In this document: positions 338 through 22,441 of the stretch, in pieces
Position numbering within the stretch: the first letter of the stretch is position 1
Layout of the letters: the number at the start of each line of letters is the position of its first letter
From: Alphaproteobacteria bacterium
Lineage (GTDB): Bacteria; Pseudomonadota; Alphaproteobacteria; UBA828
DNA: 64,000 bases
Reading direction: 5' to 3'
Assembly: GCA_965221125.1 (NCBI GenBank)
Contig: CBDCRW010000004.1
Location: 736,001-800,000 of the forward strand
The notes under the pieces: generated by a model
What the model was told of the DNA's origin: nothing
Databases searched by the model: none
What the model saw: only the letters and a program-made list of their open reading frames with translations
Translations under genes and position numbers: made by a program

Positions 338-657
338 GGATCGGTCTCCCCGGCGGTGGCGCGAGAGGCCGCTCCGCGGCCCCCGGAAGGCGCCCCGCCG
401 AGGCCGGGCTCTGCCTCCTGCTGGCGCTACGCCCACCGGGCGGCGGTCGCTGCGGGTGTGAGACCGGAAGCGGCGAGACCGCGACAGGGAATCTGCCCGG
501 GCCGGCAGCGGGGGGATCGGCGATAGCGAACTGGAGGCGCGGCGCGGGCGTTGTTGCGAGGCGCTGCACCGGAGTGCTAACTGCCGGTCGTGAGTTGCGT
601 GGGCGGTCGCGCTACGGCGTTGCGGGCAATGCGAGACAGAGGGGGTTGGAAACCGTC

Positions 658-1047
658 ATGGAGGCGAAGGCACGTCGGAGGGTTCCGGCGTTTGTCAGAA
701 TCCTGGCGCTGGTGTGCGTCAGGCAATCGATGCTCGAAACGCTACACCGCGGCGCGACGCCGATTACGCGGACCGGCGACTACTCGGACGTCGTCGTGGT
801 CGACGCCGAAGGTCGGCGCATTCCCTGGCCGGAGGTGTCGCGGTTCGACGAGAACGAAATGCGCGATCTGATGCGCGAGATCGTCAACAAGCTTTACACG
901 TTTTTCGTGAAGGCCGAGGACCCTGATTTCGTGGCCTGGACCGATTTCGTGCGACCGCAGAGCTACCACTGGGACAGGCCGAAGATCGACAAGGTCTTGA
1001 TGCACTTTGTGAAGGAATACGCCCGTGTCCGGCGCAAGAAGGGGTGA
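658..1047 (+). CDS. Hypothetical protein, probably element backbone
   Basis: ORF 574..1047 with ATG at 658; globular-looking sequence (GDYSDVVVVDAEGRRIPWPEVSRF); family not assigned. Confidence 0.6.
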   Translation: MEAKARRRVPAFVRILALVCVRQSMLETLHRGATPITRTGDYSDVVVVDAEGRRIPWPEVSRFDENEMRDLMREIVNKLYTFFVKAEDPDFVAWTDFVRPQSYHWDRPKIDKVLMHFVKEYARVRRKKG

Positions 1048-1240
1048 TGGAAAAAGGAGATAGCCAAGGCCCGTGCAATCCTTAGCGCACTGCCGAACGA
1101 AGTGCCGATGCCAAAGACGGGCGAAGCATGATCCGGGGGCTGGCCCCGTGCTTGGCGAGGATACGGTCGCGAGGGAGCGCCACCAGGGCGCCGTCACGGG
1201 GCTGAGTTCCAGACGTGAAACCATCCGCAGAACGGTTTGA

Positions 1241-1385
1241 ATGAGTCTTCCAGACATCGACTTCCACTACATCCGTCCCGTTGACGGCAGCCGCCAGGAC
1301 GGATTCGAAGAGCTTTGCTGCCAGCTCGCCTCGCTCGAGCCCTCCAGGGCCGGCTCACATTTCGTCCGAAAGGGTCGAGGAGGCG
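1241..1385 (+). pseudogene. N-terminal fragment of a nuclease-headed defence protein (Avs/STAND-type N-terminus)
   Basis: IDFHYIRPVDGSRQDGFEELCCQLA...FVRKGRGG resembles the start of restriction-endonuclease-like domains on large NTPases; similarity ends abruptly at ~1385. Confidence 0.5.
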
Positions 1386-1568
1386 CTTGCCCATGGCGAG
1401 GATGTCCGGCTGCCGGTATTCGGGAGCTTCGGCACCAGAATCCGGCCGGCTCGTACCGGACGCAATCCGAGGACCGGCGAGGCCGTTTCGATACCGGCGT
1501 CCACTTCGCCAACGTTCAAGGCGGGGAAGACGCTGAAGGACGCCGTGAATGGGGGTGGGGGATACTGA
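1380..1568 (+). pseudogene. 5'-truncated HU/IHF-family DNA-binding protein
   Basis: EALAHGEDVRLPVFGSFGTRIRPARTGRNPRTGEAVSIPASTSPTFKAGKTLKDAVN aligns by eye with the C-terminal part of the HU at 27015. Confidence 0.85.
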
Positions 1569-1987
1569 CGGCGCTACCAGAGAAAATCGCGCCTGGAAGC
1601 GCCTCAAGCAGACTGAATATGGATCCTGGCCGATTGCTATACGATGACGGACACTATGCGAGCTGTCGGGGCGGTGCCGGAAAAGCCGAAGAAAGCCGCA
1701 GCGTTGACGGCTGGCCTGCTATCGATCCGGATGATGCATCGCGCATCAGGCAAGAAGGTCGTGAAGCTGTCCGTTCTGGCCCACTTCGCCACAGGGGTAA
1801 CTGCCGTTAGAGCAAAATCGGTTCGACGGGATTCTGGCGGCCCGAGTAATGGGCGGAGCTCGCCCAGCTATTCGAGGGCCGAGCCTACCATATCGGTGAT
1901 TGGTGAGTTGGGACGGTATGGTACGAAGGGCATCAGTTTGAGCGTCAATAGAATGCACAGCGCACCAAGGGTGTAATGGAGGATGGC

Positions 1988-2203
1988 ATGAGTACGGGCC
2001 GGGAACCAACGTTTTCAGAATTGGTACGGCTGAGTACGTCGGCCCACCAGGACGGAGCGCGAACCCTGTGGGTACCGCTACGGAATCAATTCGATCGAGA
2101 GGGGCCTGACGCGGCAAGAGAATATCTGCTGGCGCAACGACAGCGGCTCGTGGAGCAAGTGGAGAAACAGCTTGATCAGCTCGATGGGCGAATAGATGGC
2201 TAA
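1988..2203 (+). CDS. Small helical hypothetical protein coupled to the SMC-like ATPase
   Basis: GGAGG RBS before ATG 1988; overlaps the next gene by 8 nt. Confidence 0.7.
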   Translation: MSTGREPTFSELVRLSTSAHQDGARTLWVPLRNQFDREGPDAAREYLLAQRQRLVEQVEKQLDQLDGRIDG

Positions 2204-4274
2204 CGGGTTCCGGATAGAGCGGATATCGATCGAAGGATTCAAGGGGTTCACGAGAGTTCAGGAAATTGAGCTGAAGAACCGCCATGTGTTCCTGTTGGGT
2301 CCGAATGGGAAAGGCAAATCCAGCATCGTTGAGGCCATTCGATGGGGCCTTTTCGGTTCCACCGGCAGGCGGAACGACGTTGTACGTAACGGAAGCTACA
2401 GCGGCGAGTGCCGCGTCGTGATCGATTTGTCGCGGGATGGCAACGAGTGGAATCTCACTCGCGTGTTGATGCCCGGAAGCGGAGAGAGCCGACCGGAACT
2501 GGTGGACCATTTGGGGGAGGTGAGGAACATCCGCGATGTCATGCCTCAGATTCACTCGCTCGATGCTGGCGAAGGAGCACACATCATTTTCGCGGCGCAA
2601 TCTGCTCCTCTCGGCCGTCCTCCGGAGGATTTGAGCCCATTCGAGAAGACTGTGATCGGCCATTTGGGGCTAACCGATGCAAGCGCACTGGCGAGCCATC
2701 TTGATACTTTCGTGAAGGAACAAGGAGAGGAGGAGGCCCGTCTAACCAGACTCGTGGACGACAGACGTGATCGTCTTGAAGAGCGGATCGCGCAGTTGCA
2801 GCGGCAGCGCGGAGGGATTCTCGAAGCTCCACCATGGGATGGTGAGCTTCCACCCTCAATCGCGGAAAGTGAGGACAAGGCGAAGGAGTTGATCAATGAG
2901 ATCACACCGGACGACTCAGACGGTGAATCCAGTGCAATGCGACTTGACGCTCTCGTTGATAAGGCGGACCGAGCTTTAGAGAAGAGGATCGGGCTGGATC
3001 GAACGCCACTCGCCGAAGATCTGGCTCGGCTAGACCAGGTGTTAACCGAGTTGAAGACGATTAGTGACATATTGACGGCCATCGGCGACAAGAAAGACTA
3101 CCTCCAAGAGGCGGAAGAGGCCCGCGATGAGGTCCTCAACGGCGTAGGGTTAGACGAGTTACGCAGACGTATGGAGTCACAACGTCGAAGTGCGGGAGCC
3201 GCAGCTCTCGGCCGGCGGCTGGGTGAGGTCGCGGCTGAATTGATCGATCGCAGCGATGACGTGGGCACAATGTCGTGTCCACTATGCGGGACTGACCACG
3301 ACCGGAATGAGCTAGGCGATCTGATTTCGGCGTTGTCGCAGACCGACGACGAGCAGAATGCCTCGAAACTGCGGGAAATGGAGGGCCAACTGAATGCGGC
3401 CCTGGAAGCAGATCGCCGAGTAGGCCAGCTTAGGGAGGAGCTGCGGGTGTGCGAGGGTGACCTCCGTGATGCGGTAGCCGATTCTGAAGACGCGAAACTG
3501 GCCGAGGCCGTCTCTGGTGGAGACGTTGGAGACTACATCGAGTCAGTGAAACAACAGAAGCTGTCAAAAGAGAAGCAGATAGACGGATTCGAAGATTGGC
3601 TAAAGGGTGTCCAAACGAGGGTTGTGAAGCTGCGCGAAGAAGCGAGGTTTCAAAGCATTCAGCAGGACCTGAAATATTTGAAGGCCGTCGATGAGGAGAT
3701 GCAGGGCGCGGAGCGATCGTTTCAGCAATTCGTGGAGTTCGGAGAATCCGTCAGGGGTATCCAGAGCTCTGTCAGATCGACCCTGACCCATGAGCTGCGC
3801 GCGAAGGCACCAAGCGTCGCGAACAAACTCACCACTGTGTTCTGCGCACTAACTAAGCACGATTACTTCGATCGGCTGGTCATCGACGACGAAAAACTAC
3901 CGAAACTTGAGCTGTTGGTAGCGAGTAGCAGCGATACCTCAGGAACATTGCATCCGACAGGCGTGTTGAACGGACAGGCGGAGAGCGCACTGGCGTTGGT
4001 CCCGCATTTCGCCTTGAGCCAGGCAGAAGAGGCACCGACAGAAGTCTATCTCGTGCTACTTGATGATCCAACCCGAGCCTTCGACAGAGAGCATATTGAG
4101 ATACTCATTGAACGGCTGGCGGATCTAGGCAAGCGGGTCCAGGTTGTTGTTGCTACGCAGGAAACGGAGACATTTCGTGAGTTGCTGCCGAAGTTTTTTG
4201 AGCGTGAGACCTACGTGGTTGTAGAACCCCAGAATTGGTCGCCTATAGATGGCCCGACACTTGTTATCCAGTGA
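2196..4274 (+). CDS. Rad50/SbcC/SMC-like ABC ATPase with zinc hook
   Basis: FKGF, Walker A GPNGKGKSS, coiled coils, central CPLC, degenerate signature LNGQ, Walker B/D-loop LLDDPTRAFD. Confidence 0.9.
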   Translation: MANGFRIERISIEGFKGFTRVQEIELKNRHVFLLGPNGKGKSSIVEAIRWGLFGSTGRRNDVVRNGSYSGECRVVIDLSRDGNEWNLTRVLMPGSGESRPELVDHLGEVRNIRDVMPQIHSLDAGEGAHIIFAAQSAPLGRPPEDLSPFEKTVIGHLGLTDASALASHLDTFVKEQGEEEARLTRLVDDRRDRLEERIAQLQRQRGGILEAPPWDGELPPSIAESEDKAKELINEITPDDSDGESSAMRLDALVDKADRALEKRIGLDRTPLAEDLARLDQVLTELKTISDILTAIGDKKDYLQEAEEARDEVLNGVGLDELRRRMESQRRSAGAAALGRRLGEVAAELIDRSDDVGTMSCPLCGTDHDRNELGDLISALSQTDDEQNASKLREMEGQLNAALEADRRVGQLREELRVCEGDLRDAVADSEDAKLAEAVSGGDVGDYIESVKQQKLSKEKQIDGFEDWLKGVQTRVVKLREEARFQSIQQDLKYLKAVDEEMQGAERSFQQFVEFGESVRGIQSSVRSTLTHELRAKAPSVANKLTTVFCALTKHDYFDRLVIDDEKLPKLELLVASSSDTSGTLHPTGVLNGQAESALALVPHFALSQAEEAPTEVYLVLLDDPTRAFDREHIEILIERLADLGKRVQVVVATQETETFRELLPKFFERETYVVVEPQNWSPIDGPTLVIQ

Positions 4275-4484
4275 CGCAGATCCCGACCGATTCGTCGCCG
4301 TCGATTGCCTGGAGCAACTGCGTTCCCGGGTCAGCCCGTCTGAATTCGGCTACAGGGTTCAGGCGTTGGCAGGACACATCCTTCTGGGACTGGGGCACAG
4401 TATTTTGGAGATCAACCAGAAGGGGCATCCGGATCTCATCAGCGAAAAGGGTGGTCAGGAATTCCGCTTTGAGGTTGAAGCTGA
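4249..4484 (+). pseudogene. 5' half of a PD-(D/E)xK-like nuclease gene interrupted by a transposon
   Basis: HPDLISEKGGQEFRFEVEA; frame joins 9111-9420 once the insertion and one TSD copy are removed. Confidence 0.75.
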
Positions 4485-4889
4485 TGTTGTTTCGCACGTT
4501 ATTTGACGCCGAATCTCCCAGATTATTTGACGTGATCGCTGCCCTGATTTCCCAGATTGCTCGGTCTTTTCCGGATCGAAGCGTAGGAGCTCATGGTCTC
4601 TGCGGGCGGTCCGGGGTCGCTGTCTGATTGAGGTTTGGACTGGTGCTTGAGGAGAGCTGACGAGGTGTCGCGCGGCCGTCGGCGCGTCAAGCGGCTGCGC
4701 CGCTCCTGCGCTTCGCTTCGGCCCTTCGGGTGACTCGCCACCGTCCACACGACGAAGTGCTGCCATGGCCTGAAGCAAGCTTCCGGCCACGGACTGGCCG
4801 CTCACCTGACGTAGTATCCCGGTGGAGGCGCAGCGCCTTCCGGACCGTTGGGGAAGGGTGGTTCCCGACGGCGGTTCCGGCTCGAACCC

Positions 4890-5930
4890 CTAGGCGTTGG
4901 CGGAACCGGGCTCCGGGAACCGCGGGGCCTGCGGCCGACTGCTGCCGTTGGCGGCGGCGGCCGCCGCCCGCTTGTCCGCTGCGCCTGCGACGACGCTGTA
5001 GCCGCCCTCGGCGTTGCGCGCGACGCGACCCTCCTGGACGAGCTTTTGCAAGATTACGCCGACGGTCTTGTGCCGGGTCGCGGCGCGTTCCCGGATCTGG
5101 CGTTGCGAGAGCGGCGCCCCGGCGTCGGCGAGCGCCTTGAGAACGCGGCATTCGGGTGTTTCGGGCTGAGGCGCCCCGCCGCCGGCCGTGGGCGGCTGGC
5201 GCAGCCGGAAGGAGGGCTCCTCTCCGTCTTCCTTGAGCTCGATCTCGATGTCGTCGAGACCGCGTGCGGCGCGATGCTCGACGGTCATGAGGGTCTGCCG
5301 GTCCCGGCGGCGCAGGTAGAGGTTCGAGTCCCCCCAGGCGTGCAGCTCACTGCTGCCCCGCAGGGCCTGCCCCGGCCTCGTGGCCCCGCTCTTGCGGGCG
5401 TGGTGGACGAGGAGGACGGCGGTCTCGAAGCGGCGTTGCAGGTCGCGCAGGAAGCCGAGGATCGGGGCGACGTCCGCAACCGTGTTCTCGTCCACGCCGT
5501 GCAGGCGGACCAGGGGGTCGAGGACCACGAGGCGCGGTGCGATGCGCTCCACGGTCTGCTGCAGGCGGCGGCGGTCGTCGAGATGGTCGAGGCGCAGTGT
5601 GGGCACGTCGATGACGGCGATGTCGAGGGTCTCGAAGCGGGCGCCTGCGGCGCGGGCGATCCCCTGCAGGCGCTTGCGCACGAGGTGGCCGGCGTCTTCT
5701 GCGGCGAACAGCAGGACCGGGCCAGGCCGGGCCGGGGCGAAGTGCCGCAGGCATGGGACGCCGGCGGCGACTGCGACCGCGAGGTCCAGCGCCAGGATGG
5801 ACTTGCCGCACTTCGGCTCGCCGCCGACGATGCCGACGGCCTGCTCGCCCCATAGCGTGTCCACCAGCCATTGCTGCTCGCGCGGCCGCTCCTCCAGCTC
5901 GATCGGGGCGCGGGTCGGGAAGCCGGTCAT
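4890..5930 (-). CDS. RecA-like AAA_25 (RepA/SF4-helicase-like) ATPase with C-terminal winged HTH
   Basis: GGEPKCGKS, AAED, LVVLDPL, LVHHARK, LRGSS motifs; ATGA overlap with the upstream gene. Confidence 0.8.
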   Translation of the reverse strand: MTGFPTRAPIELEERPREQQWLVDTLWGEQAVGIVGGEPKCGKSILALDLAVAVAAGVPCLRHFAPARPGPVLLFAAEDAGHLVRKRLQGIARAAGARFETLDIAVIDVPTLRLDHLDDRRRLQQTVERIAPRLVVLDPLVRLHGVDENTVADVAPILGFLRDLQRRFETAVLLVHHARKSGATRPGQALRGSSELHAWGDSNLYLRRRDRQTLMTVEHRAARGLDDIEIELKEDGEEPSFRLRQPPTAGGGAPQPETPECRVLKALADAGAPLSQRQIRERAATRHKTVGVILQKLVQEGRVARNAEGGYSVVAGAADKRAAAAAANGSSRPQAPRFPEPGSANA

Positions 5931-6730
5931 GGCCGCAGTTCCTCGAGCGCGTGCTGCAGGTGGTCGGCACTGACGGTCCTCGCCTCGTCGAGAGCGGCGG
6001 CGGAGAGCGCGTAGTGGGCGATGCGGTTGATCTGGCGCGGCAGGCCGCGCGCGCCCTGGAACAGGGCCTCGACGGCGGGCTCTTCGAACAGCGGCAGTTC
6101 GCATCCCGCGAGCCTGAGGCGGTGCTTGATGTAAGCGTCGACCTCGTCGCGGTCGAGACCGCTCAGGTGGTGGCGGACGACGAGGCGCTGGCTGAGGGAT
6201 TCGTGCATGGCCATGGCCAGGCGGCGCCTGAGCTCGGTCAGACCGACGAGGACGAGGCACAGGCGCTGCTCTGCATCCATGGCGAAGTTGGTGAGCAGGC
6301 GCAGGTCCTCAAGGACGTCGTTGCGCAGATGATGGGCCTCGTCGATGACGAGGACCGGCAGCTGCTTGGCCTCGGTGACGAGGCGGGAGATCTCGTTTCG
6401 GATGGCCTGATAGGCCGAGGCGCGGGAGCGCTCGATGGGCAGGCCGATCTCCCACGCGATCGCCTTGTACATGTCGAGCACGTTGCCCGTGGTCAGCGAG
6501 ACGTAGTGGACCCGGTAGAGGCCTGGATGAAGCTGCGCGGTCAGATGCCGGCACACGGTGGTCTTGCCGGAGCCCACCTCGCCGGTGAGCAGGCCGATGC
6601 CGCGCAGGTCGATGAGGTGGCCGAGCCTGGCCTCGGCCTCGCGGCGCGCGTTGGACTCGAACAGCTCGTCGGTCTCTGCCGGGGTCTCGAAGGGCAGGCG
6701 GGTGAAGGCGAAGTGGCGCAGGTACATCAC
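5927..6730 (-). CDS. ExeA-like AAA+ transposition helper ATPase
   Basis: GEVGSGKT, VIDEAH, GLPRQIN; coupled to the transposase. Confidence 0.88.
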   Translation of the reverse strand: MMYLRHFAFTRLPFETPAETDELFESNARREAEARLGHLIDLRGIGLLTGEVGSGKTTVCRHLTAQLHPGLYRVHYVSLTTGNVLDMYKAIAWEIGLPIERSRASAYQAIRNEISRLVTEAKQLPVLVIDEAHHLRNDVLEDLRLLTNFAMDAEQRLCLVLVGLTELRRRLAMAMHESLSQRLVVRHHLSGLDRDEVDAYIKHRLRLAGCELPLFEEPAVEALFQGARGLPRQINRIAHYALSAAALDEARTVSADHLQHALEELRP

Positions 6731-8055
6731 TCGTCCTCCTTCTTGTCCTTGAGGTTGCGCATGGCCAGCGGCGAGGGCGGAGGCTCGGGCGCCGGATCTT
6801 CGGCCTCGATCTCCCTGGCCGGGTAGGTGCGCCTGACGGCGGTATTGGCGTAGGCGTCGAGAGGGCTGGCCTTGCCGGCCGGCTTGCCGTCATGGACCAC
6901 GTCGAGAGGGCGCGAGGGCGGCGCGGCCGGGTCGTAGCGCAGGATGACGTTCTGACCCACCAGGAGGGCGTCGACCTCGTAGACGCGGCCGTTCAGACTA
7001 ACGGTGCGGTCCTTGTAGACACGGCGCCTGGCCTCGAAGAGGAACAGATCGTCGAGGTCCATGGTGGCGTCGGGATAGCGCACGCCGGCCGAGGCCAGCG
7101 CCCACTGCTCAAGCGGGGTGCGCCCCTCGTCGAGGCCACGATGCGGGCTGTTGTGATACTCCCCCTCGATCCAGGCCCAGAGGCTGCGGTTGAGCGCCTC
7201 CAGGCTGTCGACGTCATCGCCGAGGTGGCGGAGCCAGCCGGCCCGGAGGGTGCGGAAGAAGCGCTCGATCTTACCCTTTCCCGCTGGCTGGAACGCCCTT
7301 GCGTGAATCAACGCAACGCCGAGCCTGGCGCAGACCAGGGAGAGATGACGGGAGCGGTAGGCGCTTCCGTTGTCGACGTACAAGCGGGCCGGGAGGCCGC
7401 GCCGGATCAGCGCGTCCTTGAACACCGGCAGGAACGCCGCAGTGTTCTCCGCCATGGCGAAGGCGGCGAACGGGATGACGCGGGTGGCGTCGTCGATGAA
7501 GGCGATCAGGTAGGTCTTGCGCCGGGTTCGGCCGTGCCGGACCTTGGGTCCGTGCATGACGTCGCTCATCCACATCTCGCCGGCATGCCGGAAGGCGAAG
7601 CGGCGGCGATCCGCCCCGTCGGGCGGCTTCTTGTCGAACAGGCCCTCGCGGCTGAAGAGGCGGTGCACGGTGGACGAGGCGAGCGGGTGGTCGATACCCT
7701 CCTCCTTGACCTTCTGGATGATGGCGCGAACCGACAATGCGTCGTTCTCGGTCTTCAGCGCGATGAGGCGCTCGGCGACCTCGGGCGGCAGCCGCCGGGG
7801 CTTCCCCCGGTCGGTGCGGGGCTTGGGGTAGAGCGCGTCGAAGCCGCCGTAGCGGTAGTCCTTGATCCAGCGCCGCATGGTCTCGGCGGCGACCCGGGTC
7901 CTGGTGGTTCCGGGGATCGTGTAGGTCTTCTCGGCTTTGGCGCGCATCATCGCGCCGGCACCCGGTGCACCCACGGGCAGATGCACCAGATCGGCGATGA
8001 CGTCGTATCGGAAGAGCGCGATCTGTTGGCGAAGGTCGTCGTCTGAGCTGTTCAT
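6727..8055 (-). CDS. DDE (rve/Mu-like) transposase
   Basis: WMSD...FIDDATR...YVDNGSAY...GKGKIERFF; N-terminal HTH; Mu-like C-terminus. Confidence 0.93.
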   Translation of the reverse strand: MNSSDDDLRQQIALFRYDVIADLVHLPVGAPGAGAMMRAKAEKTYTIPGTTRTRVAAETMRRWIKDYRYGGFDALYPKPRTDRGKPRRLPPEVAERLIALKTENDALSVRAIIQKVKEEGIDHPLASSTVHRLFSREGLFDKKPPDGADRRRFAFRHAGEMWMSDVMHGPKVRHGRTRRKTYLIAFIDDATRVIPFAAFAMAENTAAFLPVFKDALIRRGLPARLYVDNGSAYRSRHLSLVCARLGVALIHARAFQPAGKGKIERFFRTLRAGWLRHLGDDVDSLEALNRSLWAWIEGEYHNSPHRGLDEGRTPLEQWALASAGVRYPDATMDLDDLFLFEARRRVYKDRTVSLNGRVYEVDALLVGQNVILRYDPAAPPSRPLDVVHDGKPAGKASPLDAYANTAVRRTYPAREIEAEDPAPEPPPSPLAMRNLKDKKEDE

Positions 8056-8100
8056 GGTGCGATCCTCGTTCAGGGACTCCCTGGCCCCGGGATCGTCACG

Positions 8101-8736
8101 CTACGAACTCTCCGGCGGCGGGTCCGGCCCCGCCCGTTGTTGGAACTGCGGTTTGCGATTCCCCACGTCGATGCCGTGGGGTTGGAAGCCCAGAGGCGCG
8201 GGTAGCGTCCGGAGCTGCCCGGCGACCAGGCCGCGCAGTTCCATCAACGCGCTGTCGCTCTTCAGACGCTCGCGCACCGCGCTCATGGTGGGCGCGCAGC
8301 CCGCGAGCAGGTCGGGGATCAGGCCGATGACGCGCACAAGCGCGTCGTGCACAAGCTTCAGCCTGCGGCGGATCCAACGCACGGCGCCGGGAAGCTCGAT
8401 GGCGTCCTCGTCCTCGGGGCAGCGCACCTCGTCCGCTGCCTCCTCCAGGCTGCCGGCCTCCTCCGCCACGACAACAACCGCTTCCAGCGCATCGAGCGTG
8501 CCCGGCAGCCGCGCCGCCAGACAGTCGGCCAGCAGGCCGATGGTCGTATGGCTCTCACGGCAATACCAGCGAGGAACCCTTGCGCCGGGCGGGGTCTTCC
8601 GCTCGTAGGTGCCGTGGCTTGCCACAGAACATCCGCCGTGCGGGTGATTCGGGCAGCGCTCAAGCCTTGCGTCGCGCCACGCCTCGGTCTTAACGTATTC
8701 CTCGCTGGTGAGCCCCGTTTCGTAGCGAAGCTGCAC
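8101..8736 (-). CDS. Transposon accessory protein with Cys/His (zinc-ribbon-like) N-terminus
   Basis: CPNHPHGGC...HGTYER...RWYC; first gene of the transposon operon. Confidence 0.65.
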   Translation of the reverse strand: MQLRYETGLTSEEYVKTEAWRDARLERCPNHPHGGCSVASHGTYERKTPPGARVPRWYCRESHTTIGLLADCLAARLPGTLDALEAVVVVAEEAGSLEEAADEVRCPEDEDAIELPGAVRWIRRRLKLVHDALVRVIGLIPDLLAGCAPTMSAVRERLKSDSALMELRGLVAGQLRTLPAPLGFQPHGIDVGNRKPQFQQRAGPDPPPESS

Positions 8737-9110
8737 CGGCCCTGGCCCGGCGGGAGTTCCGTCCCCCGGGCCTCTCTTTGTCGTTCAGTGAGAGGCCAAG
8801 ATTACGGACGCTCCCCGCCGCCGCCAAGCTGTGGAGCCGTGGACGCGTCCTGCGGACCGATCGGCGTCCTGCGGACCGTGTGGACAGCCCGTGGACAAGC
8901 TGGCGCTTGCCCACCGCCTGACCACACTCGCCGATCTCGCGCCCACCGCTCCACAGCTTCAACAGCAATGAGGATTCTGCTGAGGATCAAAAAAATGCCG
9001 CAGGCAGCGTCCTTCCCGCACTCGGCCACCATCCCGGGAAATCCACCAACCAATCAAAGTGAGAAAAAAACCCGTGCTTCTATCCGGCTAGACCGGAAAA
9101 CAACAGCTGA

Positions 9111-9420
9111 GGTCCTCGCCAGAAAGCCAAGAATGCTCACGCCATCGGATGTCGACGGTCTTGCGGGCAGCCGGGTCGAAGGATATTTCGCCGTGGCTGT
9201 GAGCTTCCCTCTTCCATGCTGGGTATTGGTGCCCGTGCAGCGTCTGGCCTCACGCGAGTCTCCTTCGGGCATGGCGCTCCTAAGAGCCTTGAGCGACAAG
9301 ACTTTCAGCGCGGAGTGGACGAATGAGTATGTTTCGCTGATTCGTCGATCAAGTCGTGATGTGATTGATCGGTCATACGACCAGCTGGTGCAACGAGCAA
9401 TGGACGGGCGGGGCCTGTAG
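9111..9420 (+). pseudogene. 3' half of the interrupted nuclease gene
   Basis: (E)VLARKPRMLTPSDVDGL...AMDGRGL*; 236+310 nt = 546 nt, giving a 181-aa protein. Confidence 0.75.
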
Positions 9421-10120
9421 AGTCGTACCTAGGTTCTCCGGGTGTTGTGGCGCCACTCGGTGCGCTTCGGTAACTGCTCCCTGACTTCTTCGAGATGATC
9501 GACGGATTTGATTCAGTCGTCGTCGACGGAGTCGGTATCATTACCAGAATAGGCGTATCGGCTTTCGTACGGCGCGAGAGCACGGCACAGGAATTTCTCG
9601 ATTCGTGTCCCCTGCTTCGGGACGGCGGGGAGGCCGAGCGGCTCGGACACGCTCTCGGCCCCGTGCGACCGTGGTGCTCCGGGGCCCTCTCGCCCTTGGT
9701 TGGCGTTATGTCGGGCGGGCGAAGAGGGTCGTGTCCGCAGACAGGGGAAACCAGTCGAATCTTCCGGTCGAGGACCTGGGACGGTGGGAAGGCCAGACCC
9801 GAGGGCATAGTATGGGTTGGCGGCGACGGGAGAATTGCTGTGGCGGCGCGATGCGAGGGAGCAGAAAGGCCGGACCGTACAGTGGGCTCCCGCATCGTCT
9901 GACAGACGCCATTGGCGACCGCGCGATGTGGAAGCACTGGTGGACGGCTAGCCGAGCGTCGGAAACGTCGCTCGCGCTCGAGGCCGGCGGCGTTGCCGGG
10001 GACGGGATCGAAAATCCACGTGATCCGCGTGTTTCGTGCTAACGGTCTAGCGGATGCGCACTATCGGTGTGCAAGATGGACGAGGCGCACCGGGACCACG
10101 ACGATCCGGGGAGGGAACGG

Positions 10121-10189
10121 GTGAACAGGGCTGACGTCGCCGGTCGTGTCCGTCGGCGAGACCGAATCGGACCCGTCAGCAACGAGTGA
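10121..10189 (+). pseudogene. Degenerate HU gene 5' remnant
   Basis: VNRADVAGRVRRRDRIG versus VNKTEIAGRVADRIG at 27015; shared upstream TTCGTGCTAAC (10033 and 26943). Confidence 0.5.
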
Positions 10190-10711
10190 CAGGCGAGGAG
10201 GTGGGTGTTGCGGATGTTGAAGCCCGGCGACTACGGTACGATGATGGCTGTCCGGCTTGGCTGCTCAGCTTGCCGGGAGGAGCCAAGCGGGCACCCCGGG
10301 TTGACGGCAGGCAGCCTTCACGGCTACCGCTAATGTGGCGAATGAGGCCGGAACACGGCAGGGGGCGGCCATCTTGCAGTTGCCGGTTCCTCTCAAGGCC
10401 TCAACGGTATAGGCTGATCAACACTACTGCCGAGGGCTGACAGATGTCCACGCGCCCTTGCCGAGAAGGCAAAGTCAAGTCCGGACGTACACATGCCGGG
10501 AGTGCCTCCAGACAGACCGCGACGACCAGGGGACTTGGTGCTGCACGCGCAACCACCATCGCCCTGAACGTGCTGCCAAAGCGCTTTCGCGTGTGCTTGT
10601 GAACCCATCTCGCGTTGACGTACGTCAGATACGCCAACTCCTTATGCACTCACCACACAACCGCCACGTAAAGTATAGCAATCGCGAATGCACTTCGAGG
10701 AAACAGCCATA

Positions 10712-11173
10712 ATGACTTCAGATAGTCCGCCATTCAGGCTTTCCCTCTGGAAAGATTACGTGCCGCAACGAACACTTATTGCGACGCAAGTTGAAGGAAA
10801 TAGCCAGGAACCGAAGGTAATTGTTCAAGAAAATTTACAAGAAGAGATTTACTCGTGGCATACACTAGAAGATCCGTTTGGTGGTGTTACCGACTCCGAG
10901 CTACGACAAAAGCTTCGCCACGCTCTTGTGGAGCGCTTGAATCCGTCACTTCCACCGTCTCAGAGGGGTATTGAAGTACTCGAGGAATTCGCACGGCTAG
11001 CGGGAAAGGCTATCGTCGATCGTAAGGTAGAATGGGTCTGGGGACACGGTGCTTCCCAGCATAACGATGCGATGGTAGAGCCACTAAACTCCTTATTGGC
11101 ACTCAAGTTGCATGTGGATTGGCTTCTGGCCTGCTTCATTGCGCGACCCGGAATCTCGGTGTCGGTACGATGA
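10712..11173 (+). CDS. Hypothetical protein, first gene of the cargo cluster
   Basis: ORF 10688..11173; GAGGA RBS before ATG 10712; ATGA overlap with the next gene. Confidence 0.7.
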   Translation: MTSDSPPFRLSLWKDYVPQRTLIATQVEGNSQEPKVIVQENLQEEIYSWHTLEDPFGGVTDSELRQKLRHALVERLNPSLPPSQRGIEVLEEFARLAGKAIVDRKVEWVWGHGASQHNDAMVEPLNSLLALKLHVDWLLACFIARPGISVSVR

Positions 11174-13218
11174 TGTCCTTTCATCTGAATTCACCCGCAG
11201 AAGCAGAAGCGGCGATAGCTAATCTTCTCAAGGAGGAATATTCCAAGCCAAATGGTCAATGTTCCATTTGCGTTCGGGACGATGGTGCCTTTTTGAACCA
11301 AGAATGGCTCAATCTTGGTGTCCTTTACTTTCCTGACTTGCCAAAGGATTCCGATGACTTGGAAGAGTATGAGGCGTGGCAAAATCTTGTGAAACTCGGA
11401 GCGTTCGAGTGGCATATAGCGGACTATAAGGCGATCGAAGAAAAATTAGCGCATTTGCTTGGCCATGAGATCGGCAAGGGTGATTTTCATTTGGGTACTC
11501 TAACTCGCGATATCTCATGTATTGCGGTGAGGACCGGCTTGTTGCTGCCTACATTCGATCCGGCGGCGCTGGACGAGATGCCCTATCGTCGATCAACGAC
11601 TATCATATCAGATACATCTGGTGTAGTACAGGGTGGTCTGGACTTTGTTGCCTCACATCTGAGTCCTGCTGCCAGAATAAAGGTTCCTTCAATCGTGCAT
11701 ATGGAGTTGGTTGGCGCCGCTGAGAACTACTTTAGTCTTCGCAGAGCTTCTAAGACCAAGAATGCCGCGCGCCGCCGTAAGGAACTTGTGGAACACTTAA
11801 AGAGCCAAGGCGGACAACGCTCATTGCTGCGTCTGGAGCTTCACCAAAGTACGGAAGTCGAGCGCACGTTTTTGCTCGGCGACCCGCTGCGGGAAGCTTT
11901 TGCAACAGATAACGACCGTGAATTGTCTGGTCTAAACATTAGTTTGGCAATTAGGTCTTACGCAGACCGTCTAATTTTAGAAGCGGCCCGTCAACATCAA
12001 GCGCATATGGGCCCCGGGCATGAAGTGCGACTACTAACCGCGGATCAGGGTTTGGCTAGAATGGCGTTAGCAGAGGGCATCCGGCCTTTATATTTCGGGA
12101 CAATTGACGCGGGAAGATTTTTTGGCAACTGCTTGACTGGAAGAACTTTTGACCCGTACCAAGGATCGGTGCAAGGGATCTCAATAGCGACGGTACTTTG
12201 GGAATTTGCTACGGCGTTTGGTTCAGCGCGACTGCAAGGGAAACAGACGGGGAGTGAGTTTTGCGTTTCGGCGCTTGGAGAGGATATGTCGTGGGCACCA
12301 TATCATTCCTTAGAAGACCTGCTTTGGTGTCGTCGGACCAATGGCGCGCCCAAGACCGACCCATCCAAAGTTGCCAAGAGGGAGGCTCGGGCCAAGGGGG
12401 ATGATCACGGCGAGGGGGTGGCTAAGCGGCCGAGCCGTACTACGACCTACCGACGCTTTGATGTCTCGAAGTTAGTCCGGCTGGTTTGCGAGCTGGATGA
12501 CGTACAGAAAATGGACGAAGAGGCAGTTGTAGGGATTGTTCAAACGAAGCATACCCGAGGGTTCCAGGAATACGAACGGTTTTTGTTGTCAGGAGGATTT
12601 ATCTCAGAGTCAGGAGGAATTTGGACTGCGGAGCCTCCCCTAATGGATATGTCCGCGGCGCTTCGGAACGAGAACGTGGAGGCTGTTCGTGACTTGTTGG
12701 GCGCTACACCTTCTTTCAGCGACTTCATGGGACTGCTTGGGAATGCAGGCCTCGGGGAGCCGTTGGATACGGAGTTCGCCGGTCGGAGCTCATCCACCTA
12801 TCGAACGTTGGGCGAAATTGTGCATGTCTGCGCCGCGGTTCGGGGAAAGGGGATTTACTCGACGGCGACCGTGCCGGATGCAGAGGGCTTTGCGGAGATC
12901 GCGCTAAAGCGGTTTCGCCAGCTCGACAAAGGCGACGGGTTGGTGTCCACGGGCAAGTGGCTGGAAACGCTTGTTGCAGAGGACGGCATTCATCCCGAAG
13001 TAGCTCGGAAGCTATTGGAGGAAGCAAGACAAAGACGCTTGTTGCGAAGGTCGACAGAGGGATCGACGATGCAAATGCGGTATAGAACGCACATCGTGCA
13101 TATCTTGCGGGTGGTATCCGGTGTTCCGACGGTAGTTCCTGTGCACCTGTATAGGGGAGATTACCTGATTCAGGGCAAGGCCAGTGCGAGCTTGCGGATT
13201 GAAGGAGGCGATCAATGA
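11170..13218 (+). CDS. PIN-domain protein with long C-terminal extension
   Basis: PIN-type acidic motifs: IISDTS, KVPSIVHMEL, YADRLILE, LLTADQGLARMA. Confidence 0.7.
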   Translation: MMSFHLNSPAEAEAAIANLLKEEYSKPNGQCSICVRDDGAFLNQEWLNLGVLYFPDLPKDSDDLEEYEAWQNLVKLGAFEWHIADYKAIEEKLAHLLGHEIGKGDFHLGTLTRDISCIAVRTGLLLPTFDPAALDEMPYRRSTTIISDTSGVVQGGLDFVASHLSPAARIKVPSIVHMELVGAAENYFSLRRASKTKNAARRRKELVEHLKSQGGQRSLLRLELHQSTEVERTFLLGDPLREAFATDNDRELSGLNISLAIRSYADRLILEAARQHQAHMGPGHEVRLLTADQGLARMALAEGIRPLYFGTIDAGRFFGNCLTGRTFDPYQGSVQGISIATVLWEFATAFGSARLQGKQTGSEFCVSALGEDMSWAPYHSLEDLLWCRRTNGAPKTDPSKVAKREARAKGDDHGEGVAKRPSRTTTYRRFDVSKLVRLVCELDDVQKMDEEAVVGIVQTKHTRGFQEYERFLLSGGFISESGGIWTAEPPLMDMSAALRNENVEAVRDLLGATPSFSDFMGLLGNAGLGEPLDTEFAGRSSSTYRTLGEIVHVCAAVRGKGIYSTATVPDAEGFAEIALKRFRQLDKGDGLVSTGKWLETLVAEDGIHPEVARKLLEEARQRRLLRRSTEGSTMQMRYRTHIVHILRVVSGVPTVVPVHLYRGDYLIQGKASASLRIEGGDQ

Positions 13219-14336
13219 GCCTACGAGATAAGCTTCAGCAGGCGCGACGCTCCAGCGAGGGCTCGCCACGGGGGATGTTTGAGCGCTTCGGAGTAACAGC
13301 GAATCCGTTCCCTGCGGCAAGCCAAACGTCGGGGAATCCTCATTATCCGCAAGAAGAAGCAGATGAACTGGCGGAAACGCAAATTGCTGCGTTCGTAAGG
13401 GACAATAGGTCACAGAGCTTGACTGTCGTCGGTTCTCAAGGAGTAGGAAAGACGAATTTTCTAAATTATTTTGAAGAACAATTGACTGATGTCGCAGACG
13501 AATTAGAGGGTTACTATGTTGTTCGATACCTAGCGGATCCTGAAAATACGTTTGATGGCACAATTCACAAATTGCTTCAAGAGTTAGGCGCAGAGCATTT
13601 TGCGAGACTAGCAGAATCGTTGAGTGAGGATCAAAATGCGATACGAGTGGCACGAAGTCAAGATCTTCAGACAGCACTACGTAGGCTTGCAGAAACAGAT
13701 GAGAATGAAGATAGAGCAGAAACTATTGAGTTGATGCTGGCTTGGCTGTTAGGACACCGAGTCCTAAAGATACATCGGGAATGGCTAGGAGTGAATTTTC
13801 GACAAGATACAGTCGAGGCAAAAACTGCGACTTTTCGTGATATCGTAGAAGTGAGCAGCGAAGCGGGAATTCTAAAGGGAATTTTTTTGCTGTTAGACGA
13901 ACTGGAAAAGCAGGATGGCGTTTTGGGCCCGAGAGCAGTGGTAAGATACCTGTCGGCAATCAGGGCGATTATTGATGCCTTGCCGCGAGGCTTGTTTTTG
14001 ATGCTGGCGGTGACGCCGGATGCGCTATTGCGATACACTGCTGCACTGCCAGCGTTACGCGGAAGACTGGAAAATCAGGTAGTATTGGAAGCTTTGCAAG
14101 ATGAAGAGGAAGCAGTAGAACTGGCAGAGTTCTATATCGACAAGGCTCGCGAGAAGGCAAGGGAAGATCGTAATCGGAGGGGAGGAAGTGAAGAAATCTT
14201 GTCGAGGCGTAAGATTGAGAAATGTTTTCAGACGCTTTGGGAACGAGCGGAGGAAAGAGGAGATGACGGTGTCAGGCAACGAGAGTTCTTGAACGCACTT
14301 CATCTTCGTACCGAAAAAGAGCTGCGGGGAGATTGA
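13215..14336 (+). CDS. P-loop AAA+ ATPase
   Basis: NPFP, Walker A GSQGVGKT, Walker B LLLDELE, Arg-finger-like ALRGRL; ATGA overlap. Confidence 0.85.
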   Translation: MSLRDKLQQARRSSEGSPRGMFERFGVTANPFPAASQTSGNPHYPQEEADELAETQIAAFVRDNRSQSLTVVGSQGVGKTNFLNYFEEQLTDVADELEGYYVVRYLADPENTFDGTIHKLLQELGAEHFARLAESLSEDQNAIRVARSQDLQTALRRLAETDENEDRAETIELMLAWLLGHRVLKIHREWLGVNFRQDTVEAKTATFRDIVEVSSEAGILKGIFLLLDELEKQDGVLGPRAVVRYLSAIRAIIDALPRGLFLMLAVTPDALLRYTAALPALRGRLENQVVLEALQDEEEAVELAEFYIDKAREKAREDRNRRGGSEEILSRRKIEKCFQTLWERAEERGDDGVRQREFLNALHLRTEKELRGD

Positions 14337-14369
14337 AGCAGTGGAGACGAGTGATAGCCTAGGGATGGA

Positions 14370-15845
14370 ATGAGTGGTGTGAGCGAGGACGGGATGGCGG
14401 CTGTAGCAATCGAAAAACAAGATGGAAGCGCGGTCGGGAGAAATACGCCAAATTCTCAGCAAGGGGCACAAACGAAGAGGACAGGGAGGGGATTCGTGAT
14501 AAGCGGTGCTCCAAGGCTGGTAGTGTCTGGGCGAATTCGTAGGGAGTCCGAGAAGCACGATCCAGATCGGGAATATCGGTTTGGTTATGCTGATGAACAC
14601 CATTCGGAATTACCGCACGTGGTCAAGTTCTCGGGTGGCAGATCGAGTGGCATGCTGCTGTTGACACTCTTGGCAAATGACATACTGAAGGCCGAACGAG
14701 GGGATGTCGTGTTGTTCAATAATACGGCAAGCGAGCATCCCCAGACTTACGACTTTGTAAGAGAGTGTAAGGCAGTAACGGAGCAGTACGGTATTCCTTT
14801 CTACCTTGTGGAGTTTCAGACCTATGAAGACGCCCGCAAGGGCGAGTGGACACGGCTGCCGAGCTACCGCCTCGTGAATAGCAAGCCGTGGTCAGAAACG
14901 AATCCGGACGGGGTCCATTGGCGGGGCGAGGTTTTCGAGGAGGTGATGTCGTGGTCGGGGTTCGTGCCAAACCAGTTCCGGCGTATCTGCACGACTAACA
15001 TGAAGTTGGGTGCAACCCGTATGTTCCTGCGCGACTGGTTGGCTTGCAAAGAGTCGATTCCGCGGCTTGGACACTTCGGATCGGGGTGCCGTATAGACGG
15101 GAAGGCTATGTATGCGCGTCACAGGCGCAACGGCGGAGAGGTGCCCGAAGAAATCTACATTGCCAAGAAGCGGTATGGCTGGAGCCGTCCGTATGTCCGG
15201 CCAGAACAGCGATACGAGAGTTTTTCGAAGGCATGGCGACCGTTCGAAAACAAGTGGCTAGCGGGCAAGGCGCATGGCGACCTGGCGGTGTTTGGCAAGG
15301 GAGGCGTCGAGTATGTGGCGTTTGTCGGCCTGCGTTGCGATGAGCCCGCAAGAGTCGGAAGGGTGAAGGAACGCAATAATGGGCCCGAAGCATCCGGATA
15401 CGATGGCGAGCATGTGTACATGCCCCTCGTGGACATGCACGTGGCGGCAGCGGATGTGAATGCGTTTTGGGCCCGACAGGAGTTGGACCTATGTTTGCCC
15501 CCGGACAGTGGGCTCTCGAACTGTGTGTACTGCTTCTTGAAAGGCGGTGCGACGCTGCGGAAAGTGCAACGTGAAATGGCGGGCGCGAAGCGCCAGGAAG
15601 CTCGGCTAGGCTACGGTCCACTCGACGGGACGCCGTGCGACGTCGCATGGTGGCAACGCATGGAAGAGGTGTACGGGCGCGACCTCGTAGCGGAGGAGCG
15701 GAAAATTCAGTCGGAGTTGGAGCATGATTTCCTGGGCTTCTTCGGTGCGGGAAGCCGATTTACGTATCGGTTGCTCGGAGAAGCCGACGAATCGGAGTTG
15801 GAGCAGTTCGACGCCAGTTTGTTGCCCTGCGATTGCACGGACTAG
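14370..15845 (+). CDS. Cys-rich PP-loop / PAPS-reductase-like protein, putative Fe-S sulfur-insertion enzyme (alternative start 14394)
   Basis: KFSGGRSSG PP-loop, FNNTASEHP, RICTTNMK, GLRCDE, NCVYCFLK, terminal CDCTD. Confidence 0.8.
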   Translation: MSGVSEDGMAAVAIEKQDGSAVGRNTPNSQQGAQTKRTGRGFVISGAPRLVVSGRIRRESEKHDPDREYRFGYADEHHSELPHVVKFSGGRSSGMLLLTLLANDILKAERGDVVLFNNTASEHPQTYDFVRECKAVTEQYGIPFYLVEFQTYEDARKGEWTRLPSYRLVNSKPWSETNPDGVHWRGEVFEEVMSWSGFVPNQFRRICTTNMKLGATRMFLRDWLACKESIPRLGHFGSGCRIDGKAMYARHRRNGGEVPEEIYIAKKRYGWSRPYVRPEQRYESFSKAWRPFENKWLAGKAHGDLAVFGKGGVEYVAFVGLRCDEPARVGRVKERNNGPEASGYDGEHVYMPLVDMHVAAADVNAFWARQELDLCLPPDSGLSNCVYCFLKGGATLRKVQREMAGAKRQEARLGYGPLDGTPCDVAWWQRMEEVYGRDLVAEERKIQSELEHDFLGFFGAGSRFTYRLLGEADESELEQFDASLLPCDCTD

Positions 15846-15847
15846 AC

Positions 15848-16987
15848 GTGGCGGAACGGCCGGTCTATCTGGATTGTCAAGCCACGACGCCGCCTGACCC
15901 GAGAGTGGTCACGGCGATAGTCGAAGCGTTTGATGCATTCGGGAACCCACACGGGCGTCAACACGTATACGGGCGAACGGCGGCGGACGCCATAGACGTG
16001 GCTCGGAGTCGGGTGGCCGGACTTCTGAACACGTACCCCAATCGAATCGTATTCACATCCGGAGCAACGGAATCCTGCAACCTCGCACTGCGGGGCGTGG
16101 CGCGCGCCGCCGCTCCCAAGCGACGGCGTATCATTACACTCGCTACAGAACATGCGGCGGTGCTCGAGACTGTAGAGGATCTAGGACGACACGGTTTCGA
16201 GGCGATCGTCTTGCCGGTCAGGCCGGACGGGCTCGTAGACCTCGATTGTCTCGACCAGGTGGTCGACGACGAGACGCTGATCGTTTCCGTCATGGCAGTG
16301 AACAACGAAATCGGTGTGATCCAGCCGCTCGCCAAAGTCGCTTCGATCTGCCGGCGCTATGGCGCACTGTTCCATACTGATGCAACGCAAGCGCCCGCTC
16401 GCATCGAAGTGGATGTCGAGACTTGGGGAGCCGACCTCTTGTCGATTTCGTCGCACAAGCTGTACGGACCAAAGGGCATTGGGGCGCTGTACGTGGCCGA
16501 TGACGGATTGCTTGGACCCACGTTGACCGGAGGTGGTCAAGAGCGTGGCATGCGGTCGGGAACAGTGCCGACGGAGCTCGCGTGCGGCTTCGGAGAGGCT
16601 GCGGAGCTGGCCGGAGACGAGCGGCCTGCTGACGCCGAGCGGATGACTCGTCTTGCCGCCAAGTTGCGGACCGGTATCGATGCGATGGAGGCGGATGTAC
16701 GCTATTTCGGTTCAGACAAGGAGCGGGCGCCTGGGACGTTAAACTTTGGGTTCCCTGGGATCTCCGGCGACAAGCTCGTTGCGATGGTGGAGACCGAGAT
16801 TGCGATCTCGAGCGCCTCCGCGTGTTCCTCCGGAACTGCAGGAGTTTCTCATGTGCTAGCCGCGCTTGGTTGCGGCCGGTCTGAAGCACTTACCGGCGTG
16901 CGTGTGGGATTGGGCCGATTTACGACGGAGACAGACATCGAGATTGCTTTGACGGCGATTGGTCGGGCGGTAGGTACGGCTGCATGA
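15848..16987 (+). CDS. Cysteine desulfurase (IscS/DndA-like)
   Basis: YLDCQATT, FTSGATES, PLP lysine in HKLYGPKG, catalytic Cys in SSASACSS. Confidence 0.93.
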   Translation: MAERPVYLDCQATTPPDPRVVTAIVEAFDAFGNPHGRQHVYGRTAADAIDVARSRVAGLLNTYPNRIVFTSGATESCNLALRGVARAAAPKRRRIITLATEHAAVLETVEDLGRHGFEAIVLPVRPDGLVDLDCLDQVVDDETLIVSVMAVNNEIGVIQPLAKVASICRRYGALFHTDATQAPARIEVDVETWGADLLSISSHKLYGPKGIGALYVADDGLLGPTLTGGGQERGMRSGTVPTELACGFGEAAELAGDERPADAERMTRLAAKLRTGIDAMEADVRYFGSDKERAPGTLNFGFPGISGDKLVAMVETEIAISSASACSSGTAGVSHVLAALGCGRSEALTGVRVGLGRFTTETDIEIALTAIGRAVGTAA

Positions 16988-17000
16988 AGAGATTGGGACG

Positions 17001-20169: not shown

Positions 20170-20177
20170 GACAATCC

Positions 20178-22252: not shown

Positions 22253-22441
22253 GGGACAAAATTCTTGACGTTGGAAGAGCAGTCTAGCAAGCTGGCAAAC
22301 TATTGGCAAACACTTTGGATGGTTTCGCAGCGCAGGAAAGGCGGCGCATGCGTCCGCAAAAATTATGAAAAGGCCAATATATCAGCAGTTTGTCAACATT
22401 CAGTCGTCGTCAGCGCATCTGAGACGCAGTTTGTGGTCACA

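Follow-up and report, generated by a model that had tools for sequence, protein, structure and literature searches.

Downstream of a small gene and an ATPase gene in the stretch of DNA described here lies a third reading frame that a mobile element has broken in two, and the locus raises the question of what kind of system the three genes make up and what the break has done to it. The stretch, hereafter the window, comprises 64,000 nucleotides from a bacterium of the Alphaproteobacteria (assembly GCA_965221125.1, contig CBDCRW010000004.1, positions 736,001 to 800,000). A preliminary description, made from the sequence alone, had proposed a distinct system in which a zinc-hook ATPase of the SMC type serves as sensor for a nuclease effector, the effector gene being split by a transposon and the system inactivated. 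Our analysis leads us to regard the locus as a three-gene defence cassette, acquired horizontally, whose family is uncatalogued and has Lamassu and SbcCD as relatives, with its nuclease gene split by a transposon, and we put the probability of this reading at roughly 60%.

When positions 4485-9110 were removed, ...FRFEVEA was fused to EVLARK... and an open reading frame (ORF) of 181 aa (4249-4484 + 9111-9420) was restored, which carries a PD...ExE motif and overlaps the stop codon of the ATPase gene (4274) by 26 nt; this junction had been predicted in the preliminary description and held to the base. The transposon cuts the frame inside codon 79, just past the HPD...ExE site, and the 3' part supplies the strands still missing from the nuclease beta-sheet, together with the C-terminal helical region. 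The joined protein aligned over residues 1-181 with a single ORF in a homologous locus, L019, at 78% identity, and the DNA of L019 has a single GCTGA at the site equivalent to the insertion. Judging from these sequences, the split of the nuclease gene is more than chance. The gene had also been said to be invisible to ORF callers and, indeed, the caller reported its 3' part only within a spurious ORF of 357 aa (8347-9420), of which it forms the end. In an AlphaFold2 (AF2) model of the joined protein, the cut removes everything after beta-strand 3, i.e., beta-4, beta-5, and all C-terminal helices. Since so much of the fold is lost, the cassette should be dead as a nuclease, and the model thus agrees with the earlier view of an inactivated system: in this genome the cassette should be inactive, with its first two genes intact.

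The ends of the interrupting element read TGTTGTTT...AAACAACA. A search of the organism's own genome (4.58 Mb, 7 contigs) with window positions 4300-9300 gave 24 matches, among which, beyond the window's own copy, were 16 full-length copies, all at 100% identity; the remaining matches were partial or interrupted copies. Full, identical copies in the genome therefore number at least 17 and account for ~2% of it. A 4,621-bp element with a GCTGA duplication and this many identical copies bears out the claim that a transposon split the effector, and since the copies are identical, the insertion event appears to be recent. Among eight copies that were fetched, six were flanked by perfect 5-bp duplications of differing sequence, one by a duplication matching at 4/5 positions, and one by none; CTG was frequent within the duplications. 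With its defined ends, 5-bp duplication, transposase with AAA+ partner, and multiple copies, the element is a Mu/Tn7/Tn552-like DDE transposon, and its transposase is <40% identical to any plasmid-borne relative. G+C content is 67-74% in the transposon, 70-73% in the window backbone, and 54-59% in the interrupted and flanking genes.

Contigs from two public sequencing runs (X1 and X3) span both transposon junctions, and on these contigs the read depth of the transposon is ~14-23x that of its flanks; both runs may derive from the assembly's own source sample and are not independent support. No contig joining 4484 to 9111, as expected of an empty site, was listed in any of four sequencing runs. 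A run from another sample and another study (X7) contains a 92%-identical, 1,652-nt contig over window positions 3600-4484 that ends 3 nt past the left junction at 4484; the X1 and X3 contigs enter the transposon by 30 nt. The X7 sample also carries a 92%-identical version of the transposon at very high depth. The end of the X7 contig could mark a branch point between alleles with and without the transposon, or a relative in which the same site was hit.

A related-locus search with the single ATPase sequence yielded no relative, whereas a pattern scan with an alignment of 30 ATPase sequences, run over 185,579 species genomes, succeeded and returned 49 loci, 35 of them with a full-length relative. 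These 35 span Dehalococcoidia, Latescibacterota, Binatia, Pseudomonadales, and Paracoccaceae, as well as Rhodothermaceae, Terriglobia, Caldilineaceae, and Aerophobetes, and the scan also found a partial copy in a Micrarchaeum contig. The layout is a small protein (~70 aa), followed by a zinc-hook ABC ATPase of 692 aa and then a protein of 173-184 aa, neighbouring genes overlapping at their stop and start codons. In all 35 full-length loci the order small protein-ATPase-nuclease is kept and the joined 181-aa protein of the window matches the single 173-184-aa ORF downstream of the ATPase, the start of which lies at or just before the ATPase stop; the exception is L033, where an 800-bp spacer (8094-8898) intervenes. 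The expectation that the joined protein would have full-length homologues in a conserved setting was thereby confirmed, with hundreds of them in at least 422 clusters at 90% identity, unnamed or labelled 'hypothetical protein.' Two further ORFs of the window, at 1241-1810 and 1644-1976, were considered as parts of the cassette and ruled out, as neither had a tblastn match in the 49 fetched loci. In 40 related genomes, 20 of the same genus, matches were confined to the N-terminus of housekeeping SMC-type proteins, and since no homologue of the cassette was present in these genomes, we conclude that it was acquired horizontally. No homologue of the ATPase was detected at E 1e-10 on 72,556 plasmids. 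Several of the homologous cassettes are themselves broken: the ATPase gene is split in L019, L036, and L043, that of L032 carries an 860-bp insert (7479-8340), and in L053 the cassette ends after ~70 ATPase codons (2080 onward) and is followed by unrelated DNA. Part of these may be assembly errors.

The ATPase has at least 287 homologue clusters of ~692-700 aa and matched SMC_N of Pfam at 3.1e-16. In its AF2 model, which has a predicted local distance difference test (pLDDT) score of 81.5, the ABC head is split and two long helices run antiparallel, with the CxxC turn between these two arms. The preliminary description had pointed to a variant signature, LNGQ, and to a Gln at the position of the switch His (VATQ). 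Both are present, and in 30/30 aligned homologues C361, P362, C364, N592-Q594, D623, D624, and Q655 are invariant. By structure, the top Foldseek match was Rad50 (7zr1, E 1.8e-15). By sequence, the best solved relatives were archaeal Rad50 (E 1.7e-8; HMMER against PDB sequences), and solved LmuB chains were missing from these PDB sequence searches even at E 10.

The AF2 model of the joined third protein (pLDDT 91.5) has a Hjc-type PD-(D/E)xK core at residues ~30-148 with the order alpha-beta-beta-beta-alpha-beta and an acidic site on beta-2/beta-3, flanked by an N-terminal helix and, at 133-176, a C-terminal helical region. VIA-align gave Z 9.9 to Hjc 1ob8 and 2wcw (root-mean-square deviation 2.8-3.1 over 107-108 residues) and Z 9.6 to Hjc 1gef, followed by RecU, I-Ssp6803I, and homing and restriction endonucleases; the top Foldseek matches were likewise Hjc (probability 1.0, E 4e-3). 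Among the homologues, His60-Pro61-Asp62 and Glu75-x-Glu77 hardly vary. In the hidden Markov model (HMM) alignment, the family's HPDI lies over PDIVA of Hjc and its ExE over ExK of Hjc, and Glu occupies the position of the catalytic Lys in 28 of 29 full-length aligned homologues, with L023 having Lys at 77. The window's third protein has no family match in Pfam, PADLOC, or NCBIfam; Pfam Hjc matches 6/31 members of the family, with a best E of 0.02. An exhaustive HMMER search over 1.84 billion representatives found 134 relatives (50% identity), 91 of them at E <= 1e-10. Since all 134 are <= 215 aa, the third protein is never fused to another. Matches in the ESM Atlas were confined to Hjc-bearing and unnamed clusters.

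The first gene encodes a putative helical protein of ~70 aa, and its stop overlaps the start of the ATPase gene by 8 nt. An ORF of 66-99 aa ending at the ATPase start was detected by tblastn in 32/35 full-length loci, and the remaining three have an ORF of 66-90 aa in the same position that can be aligned to the small protein. Its conserved motif is R-x-LW...R-x-GP. It has no match in Pfam, PADLOC, or NCBIfam, and no usable match in the ESM Atlas. Since Pfam, NCBIfam, and PADLOC v2 are without matches for two of the three genes, the family is uncatalogued. A full-text search of the literature found no description of the cassette; the ABC-3C classification and the supplementary lists of Lamassu studies lay outside its scope.

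Table 1. Positions of the cassette, the transposon, and neighbouring features in the window (position 1 is the first nucleotide of the window)
Feature	Position	Strand	Basis
Gene 1, 75-aa small protein	1976..2203	+	ORF and conserved position upstream of the ATPase
Gene 2, intact 692-aa Rad50/LmuB-like ABC ATPase	2196..4274	+	Pfam, PADLOC, AF2 model, Foldseek
Walker A GPNGKGKS, residues 35-42	2298..2321	+	Sequence and alignment
CPLC zinc hook, residues 361-364, mid-coiled-coil, exactly mid-protein	3276..3287	+	Alignment and turn in the model
LNGQ at the ABC signature position, residues 591-594	3966..3977	+	Aligned to SSGQ of long LmuB
Walker B VLLDD, residues 620-624, hhhhDD type	4053..4067	+	Alignment
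VATQ, Gln655 at the H-loop histidine position	4149..4160	+	Aligned to His of SSHE, long LmuB
Gene 3, 5' part: codons 1-78 and 2 nt, HPD (60-62) and ExE (75-77)	4249..4484	+	Aligns with residues 1-78 of intact homologues
Gene 3, 3' part: last base of codon 79, codons 80-181, stop	9111..9420	+	Joined-frame alignment
Target-site duplication GCTGA, left copy	4480..4484	no strand	Direct repeat flanking the transposon
Transposon, 4,621 bp, TG...CA termini, four genes	4485..9105	-	Genome copies, target duplications, domains
Target-site duplication GCTGA, right copy	9106..9110	no strand	Direct repeat flanking the transposon
Transposon ORF, 211 aa, without domain matches	8736-8104	-	Domain scans
Transposon 442-aa DDE transposase, HTH_32 + rve + Mu-transpos_C	8055-6727	-	Domain scans
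Transposon 267-aa AAA/AAA+ ATPase	6730-5927	-	Domain scans
Transposon ORF, AAA_25/RepA-like + MarR-type helix-turn-helix	6260-4890	-	Domain scans
Avs2-like N-terminal stump, ~45 codons, inside ORF 1241-1810	1250-1384	+	PDLC02164, E 3.9e-13, positions 2-46 of 1,504
Co-directional gene row	11119-21056	+	Domain and PADLOC scans
Tyrosine integrase	21068-22309	-	Follows the co-directional row
Type III restriction-modification pair	27789-32383	+	Mod 521 bits (PDLC03634); Res 755 bits (PDLC03647)

We infer a defence function for the cassette from context only. Its immediate setting is a low-GC mosaic island at ~1.5-38 kb of the window, which also contains an Avs2-like remnant, a PIN-like protein, a BrxC/D-like ATPase, an SspA/DndA cysteine desulfurase, PDC-M33A, a tyrosine integrase, a PAPS-reductase-like gene, and a complete type III restriction-modification pair. 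Beyond the Avs2-like stump, no match to Avs2 was found downstream in any frame, and the stump looks like what is left of an Avs2-like gene cut short at the border of the low-GC island. The co-directional row encodes a PIN-like protein of 699 aa, the BrxC/D-like ATPase, a 491-aa protein with a weak SspD/PAPS-reductase match, the cysteine desulfurase, a PDC-M33A-like protein of 770 aa, and two unknowns, and may be a phosphorothioation-type or candidate defence system. Among the 35 full-length loci, we surveyed the two nearest large ORFs on each side (124 of 128 were scanned, four long ORFs having been dropped). At E 1e-10, 16/35 loci had some neighbour with a PADLOC match, and by our own classification 11/35 had a defence-type neighbour. 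Examples included BrxL, PDC-S39, PycC with HEC-06/Orf5, a pAgo/SIR2-like gene with a Mokosh-like one, and mad2/mad3; others were RmrA, methyltransferases, HEAT-ARM_XIII, and a PD-T4-6-type kinase.

The ATPase is also the part of the cassette that can be related to Lamassu. Its match to the PADLOC LmuB model PDLC03859 reached 98.6 bits (E 1.3e-28); true members of that model score 340-460 bits (18 in 401 genomes), four long forms score 188-276 bits, and at E 1e-3 the model matches all 14 control genomes, so the score stays below member level. Other PADLOC LmuB models match only the Walker A region. By hhalign, the ATPase matched long LmuB at 98.0% (E 2e-13, 162 C-lobe columns), with LNGQ opposite SSGQ and ATQ opposite SSH, while the matches to short LmuB (95%) and to SbcC-like proteins (94.6%) were both limited to the N-lobe. 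In a head-domain tree of 34 rows, in which long branches were flagged, the cassette ATPases formed a tight clade of their own, and in an approximately unbiased (AU) test a clade with long LmuB was neither rejected nor supported (p 0.066). An SbcC-like ATPase of 1,295 aa from the organism's own genome (L095, G000:C2:55796-59680), with an insertion of ~100 residues before Walker A, formed a very long branch placed beside the cassette family. The claim that the system is distinct from Lamassu therefore stands in so far as partners, gene order, and scores differ, but the distinction is a matter of degree, as the ATPase is distantly related to LmuB and closest to the long type.

Several results weigh against a defence cassette related to Lamassu. 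As many as 24/35 loci had no defence neighbour in the same survey, and the count of 11/35 is a raw one with no background control. The broken homologues L019, L036, L043, and L053 possibly reflect a dispensable or non-defence role, or assembly errors. Binding among the three proteins is predicted from their synteny and overlapping genes only. It is unusual for ExK to be replaced by ExE, and the catalytic activity is a prediction. The similarity to Lamassu is also uneven: the solved short LmuB structures (9hqu, 9hqx, 9uxh) ranked 23-29 by Foldseek, behind Rad50, SMC, and JetC; hhalign gave 0.1% for the small protein against short and long LmuC profiles and 0.1% for the nuclease against four long LmuA (short LmuA left out); and the tree split long and short LmuB from the rest with support of 94/88 (not starred), leaving the cassette ATPase outside.

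A serious rival is that the cassette serves DNA repair or recombination as a compact counterpart of SbcCD/Mre11-Rad50, in which a structure-specific, Hjc-like nuclease replaces Mre11 and acts on hairpins, cruciforms, or Holliday junctions on behalf of the host or a mobile element, with no immune role. We regard it as rather unlikely, although Rad50 is the best match of the ATPase in sequence and structure, the fold of the third protein is best matched by the junction resolvases Hjc and RecU, no PADLOC model fits either partner, and the deep split with the best support in the tree leaves the cassette ATPases on the same side as SbcC/SMC. However, the distribution is that of a patchy, horizontally spread element, absent from all 40 relatives yet present from Proteobacteria to Chloroflexota; it lies in a low-GC defence island, and 11/35 loci have defence neighbours. 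The cassette is also dispensable, as seen from the interruption here and from truncations or frameshifts in L019, L036, L043, and L053, and the ATPase motifs are degenerate like those of Lamassu and unlike those of repair Rad50. Member-level scores for repair ATPases are likewise far off: NCBIfam Rad50 (PRK03918) gave 46.8 bits against a cut-off of 700, and SbcC (TIGR00618) 25.3 bits against 478.5, both matching the N-lobe only. As the preliminary description had stated, SbcD is missing, in that no metallophosphatase/Mre11 family of Pfam matched the ORFs scanned at 574-14,333.

The opposite possibility, that this is a canonical, catalogued Lamassu (type II or long) that annotation missed only due to the split effector, is improbable. 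It draws on the PDLC03859 match, the best that the ATPase has in PADLOC, on the 98% hhalign match to long LmuB, and on the AU test, which leaves a clade with long LmuB unrejected. However, 98.6 bits is far from the scores of true members, from a model that also matches 14/14 control genomes at E 1e-3, and intact homologues of the partners fit no better: 0/31 third proteins matched PADLOC's LmuA models and 0/31 small proteins its LmuC models, nor was there a match to LmuA or LmuC profiles of the long or short kind, as far as these were compared. The third protein, moreover, has 181 aa against 408-549 aa for long LmuA, with ~45 helical residues modelled after the nuclease core in place of the C-terminal docking domain that follows the LmuA effector, and its gene lies downstream rather than upstream of the ATPase. 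We compared gene order with 12 loci (11 distinct) of the PDLC03859 subfamily, with LmuB of 644-712 aa, and four long forms, with LmuB of 775-799 aa. All 15 distinct canonical loci are ordered LmuA-LmuC-LmuB, which upholds the remark that Lamassu usually runs effector-small protein-ATPase; the small gene alone shares its position before the ATPase with LmuC, a subunit that type I Lamassu may lack. The comparison with LmuA, LmuB, and LmuC models proposed earlier thus gave a weak LmuB match only, and since the defining features of Lamassu beyond distant ATPase homology are missing, we do not file the cassette as Lamassu. Least probable of all is that the insertion left the system working, through the 78-residue N-terminal fragment, another nuclease, or the transposon as an on/off switch, since despite an intact small gene and ATPase, and an X7 contig (92% identical, ending 3 nt past the junction) that could hint at polymorphism of the site, the cut strips a compact single-domain fold of beta-4, beta-5, and every C-terminal helix, no X1 or X3 contig joins 4484 to 9111, and identical transposon copies point to a recent multi-site burst rather than a dedicated switch.

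If the locus is a defence cassette, as we favour, a mode of action can be proposed. The ATPase would dimerise via its zinc hook and, like Rad50/SbcC and LmuB, clamp DNA ends or branched or hairpin intermediates of phage or plasmid replication. In ABC ATPases, a second Asp in Walker B and a Gln in the H-loop are taken as signs of slow hydrolysis; together with LNGQ, these altered motifs may make hydrolysis slow and the ATPase an ATP-bound switch rather than a motor. Encoded in the place of LmuC or of the C-terminal domain of SbcD, the small protein is a probable bridge between the nuclease and either the ATPase heads or the base of the coiled coil. The nuclease is probably an inactive monomer that DNA sensing would release or dimerise, whereupon it might cut DNA through a metal site formed by D62, E75, and E77.

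A bolder form of this proposal is that the cassette represents a third zinc-hook SMC immune lineage beside long and short Lamassu, branched near the transition from SbcCD to Lamassu, in which the sensor, a mini-Rad50 impaired in hydrolysis that would detect DNA ends or branched intermediates of phages or plasmids, licenses dimerisation of a Hjc-like PD-ExE nuclease on this DNA, so that the target would be destroyed directly and the host is not killed. We offer it tentatively and think it rather doubtful. If it were true, the cassette would be a surviving link between repair machinery and immune sensing. Sensors of the SMC/Rad50 type are increasingly recognised in immunity to foreign DNA (Lamassu, Wadjet, human Rad50, Smc5/6), and with ~950 residues in total the cassette is about the smallest such system seen. 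It could serve as a minimal model of the coupling between DNA sensing by a zinc-hook ATPase and activation of a nuclease, one made attractive by its resolvase-type nuclease and motifs resembling hydrolysis mutants, and could inform the origin of Lamassu from SbcCD. In this genome, a recent transposon burst knocked out the putative defence gene, an event that gene callers would miss.

Compared with known systems, the cassette combines features of several. With SbcCD/Mre11-Rad50 it shares a zinc-hook ABC ATPase and a nuclease, and the gene before the ATPase takes the position of the C-terminal, SbcC-binding domain of SbcD, in line with those parts of PMC12663957 that place LmuC directly before LmuB as the SbcD C-terminal domain is placed before SbcC. 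In contrast to SbcCD, however, it has no Mre11/SbcD phosphoesterase but a Hjc-type nuclease, its coiled coil is much reduced in length (a protein of 692 aa against 1,242-1,295 aa in SbcC-like comparators), its catalytic motifs are degenerate, and it is patchy and island-borne rather than housekeeping. With archaeal Hjc and bacterial RecU, the third protein shares the fold of residues ~30-148 (Z 9.1-9.9) and a PD...E-x-(K/E) motif in register, whereas its sequence similarity to them is marginal, a helix is added at its N-terminus and a helical region at its C-terminus, and its gene is always coupled to an ATPase gene.

With short Lamassu/DdmABC, the cassette has in common a three-part make-up of SMC-like sensor, small adaptor, and nuclease; the mechanism given in PMC12663957 is sensing of DNA ends, after which the effector is released and oligomerises. 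However, the ATPase similarity is weaker there, short LmuB has D[Q/S/T/E] in Walker B, the order is A-C-B, and LmuA consists of a Cap4-type nuclease and a C-terminal domain (CTD) of 5-6 helices. The likeness to long Lamassu is greater. The sections of PMC12663957 on this type describe LmuA-LmuC-LmuB with a Rad50-like LmuB of ~800 aa that has a single CxxC and an hhhhDD Walker B consensus. Both have an SMC/Rad50-like ATPase with a single CxxC hook and hhhhDD Walker B, a small gene just before it, a nuclease component of the PD-(D/E)xK superfamily, and a defence-island context. The differences are that the cassette ATPase is ~100 aa shorter, with Gln for the H-loop His and LNGQ for SSGQ; that the small protein of ~70 aa has no similarity to LmuC of 221-237 aa; and that the nuclease, at 181 aa, stands alone after the ATPase with no detectable LmuA CTD, against 408-549 aa for long LmuA. 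We class the cassette as a variant related to Lamassu rather than a canonical member, with a mode of action that is most likely similar.

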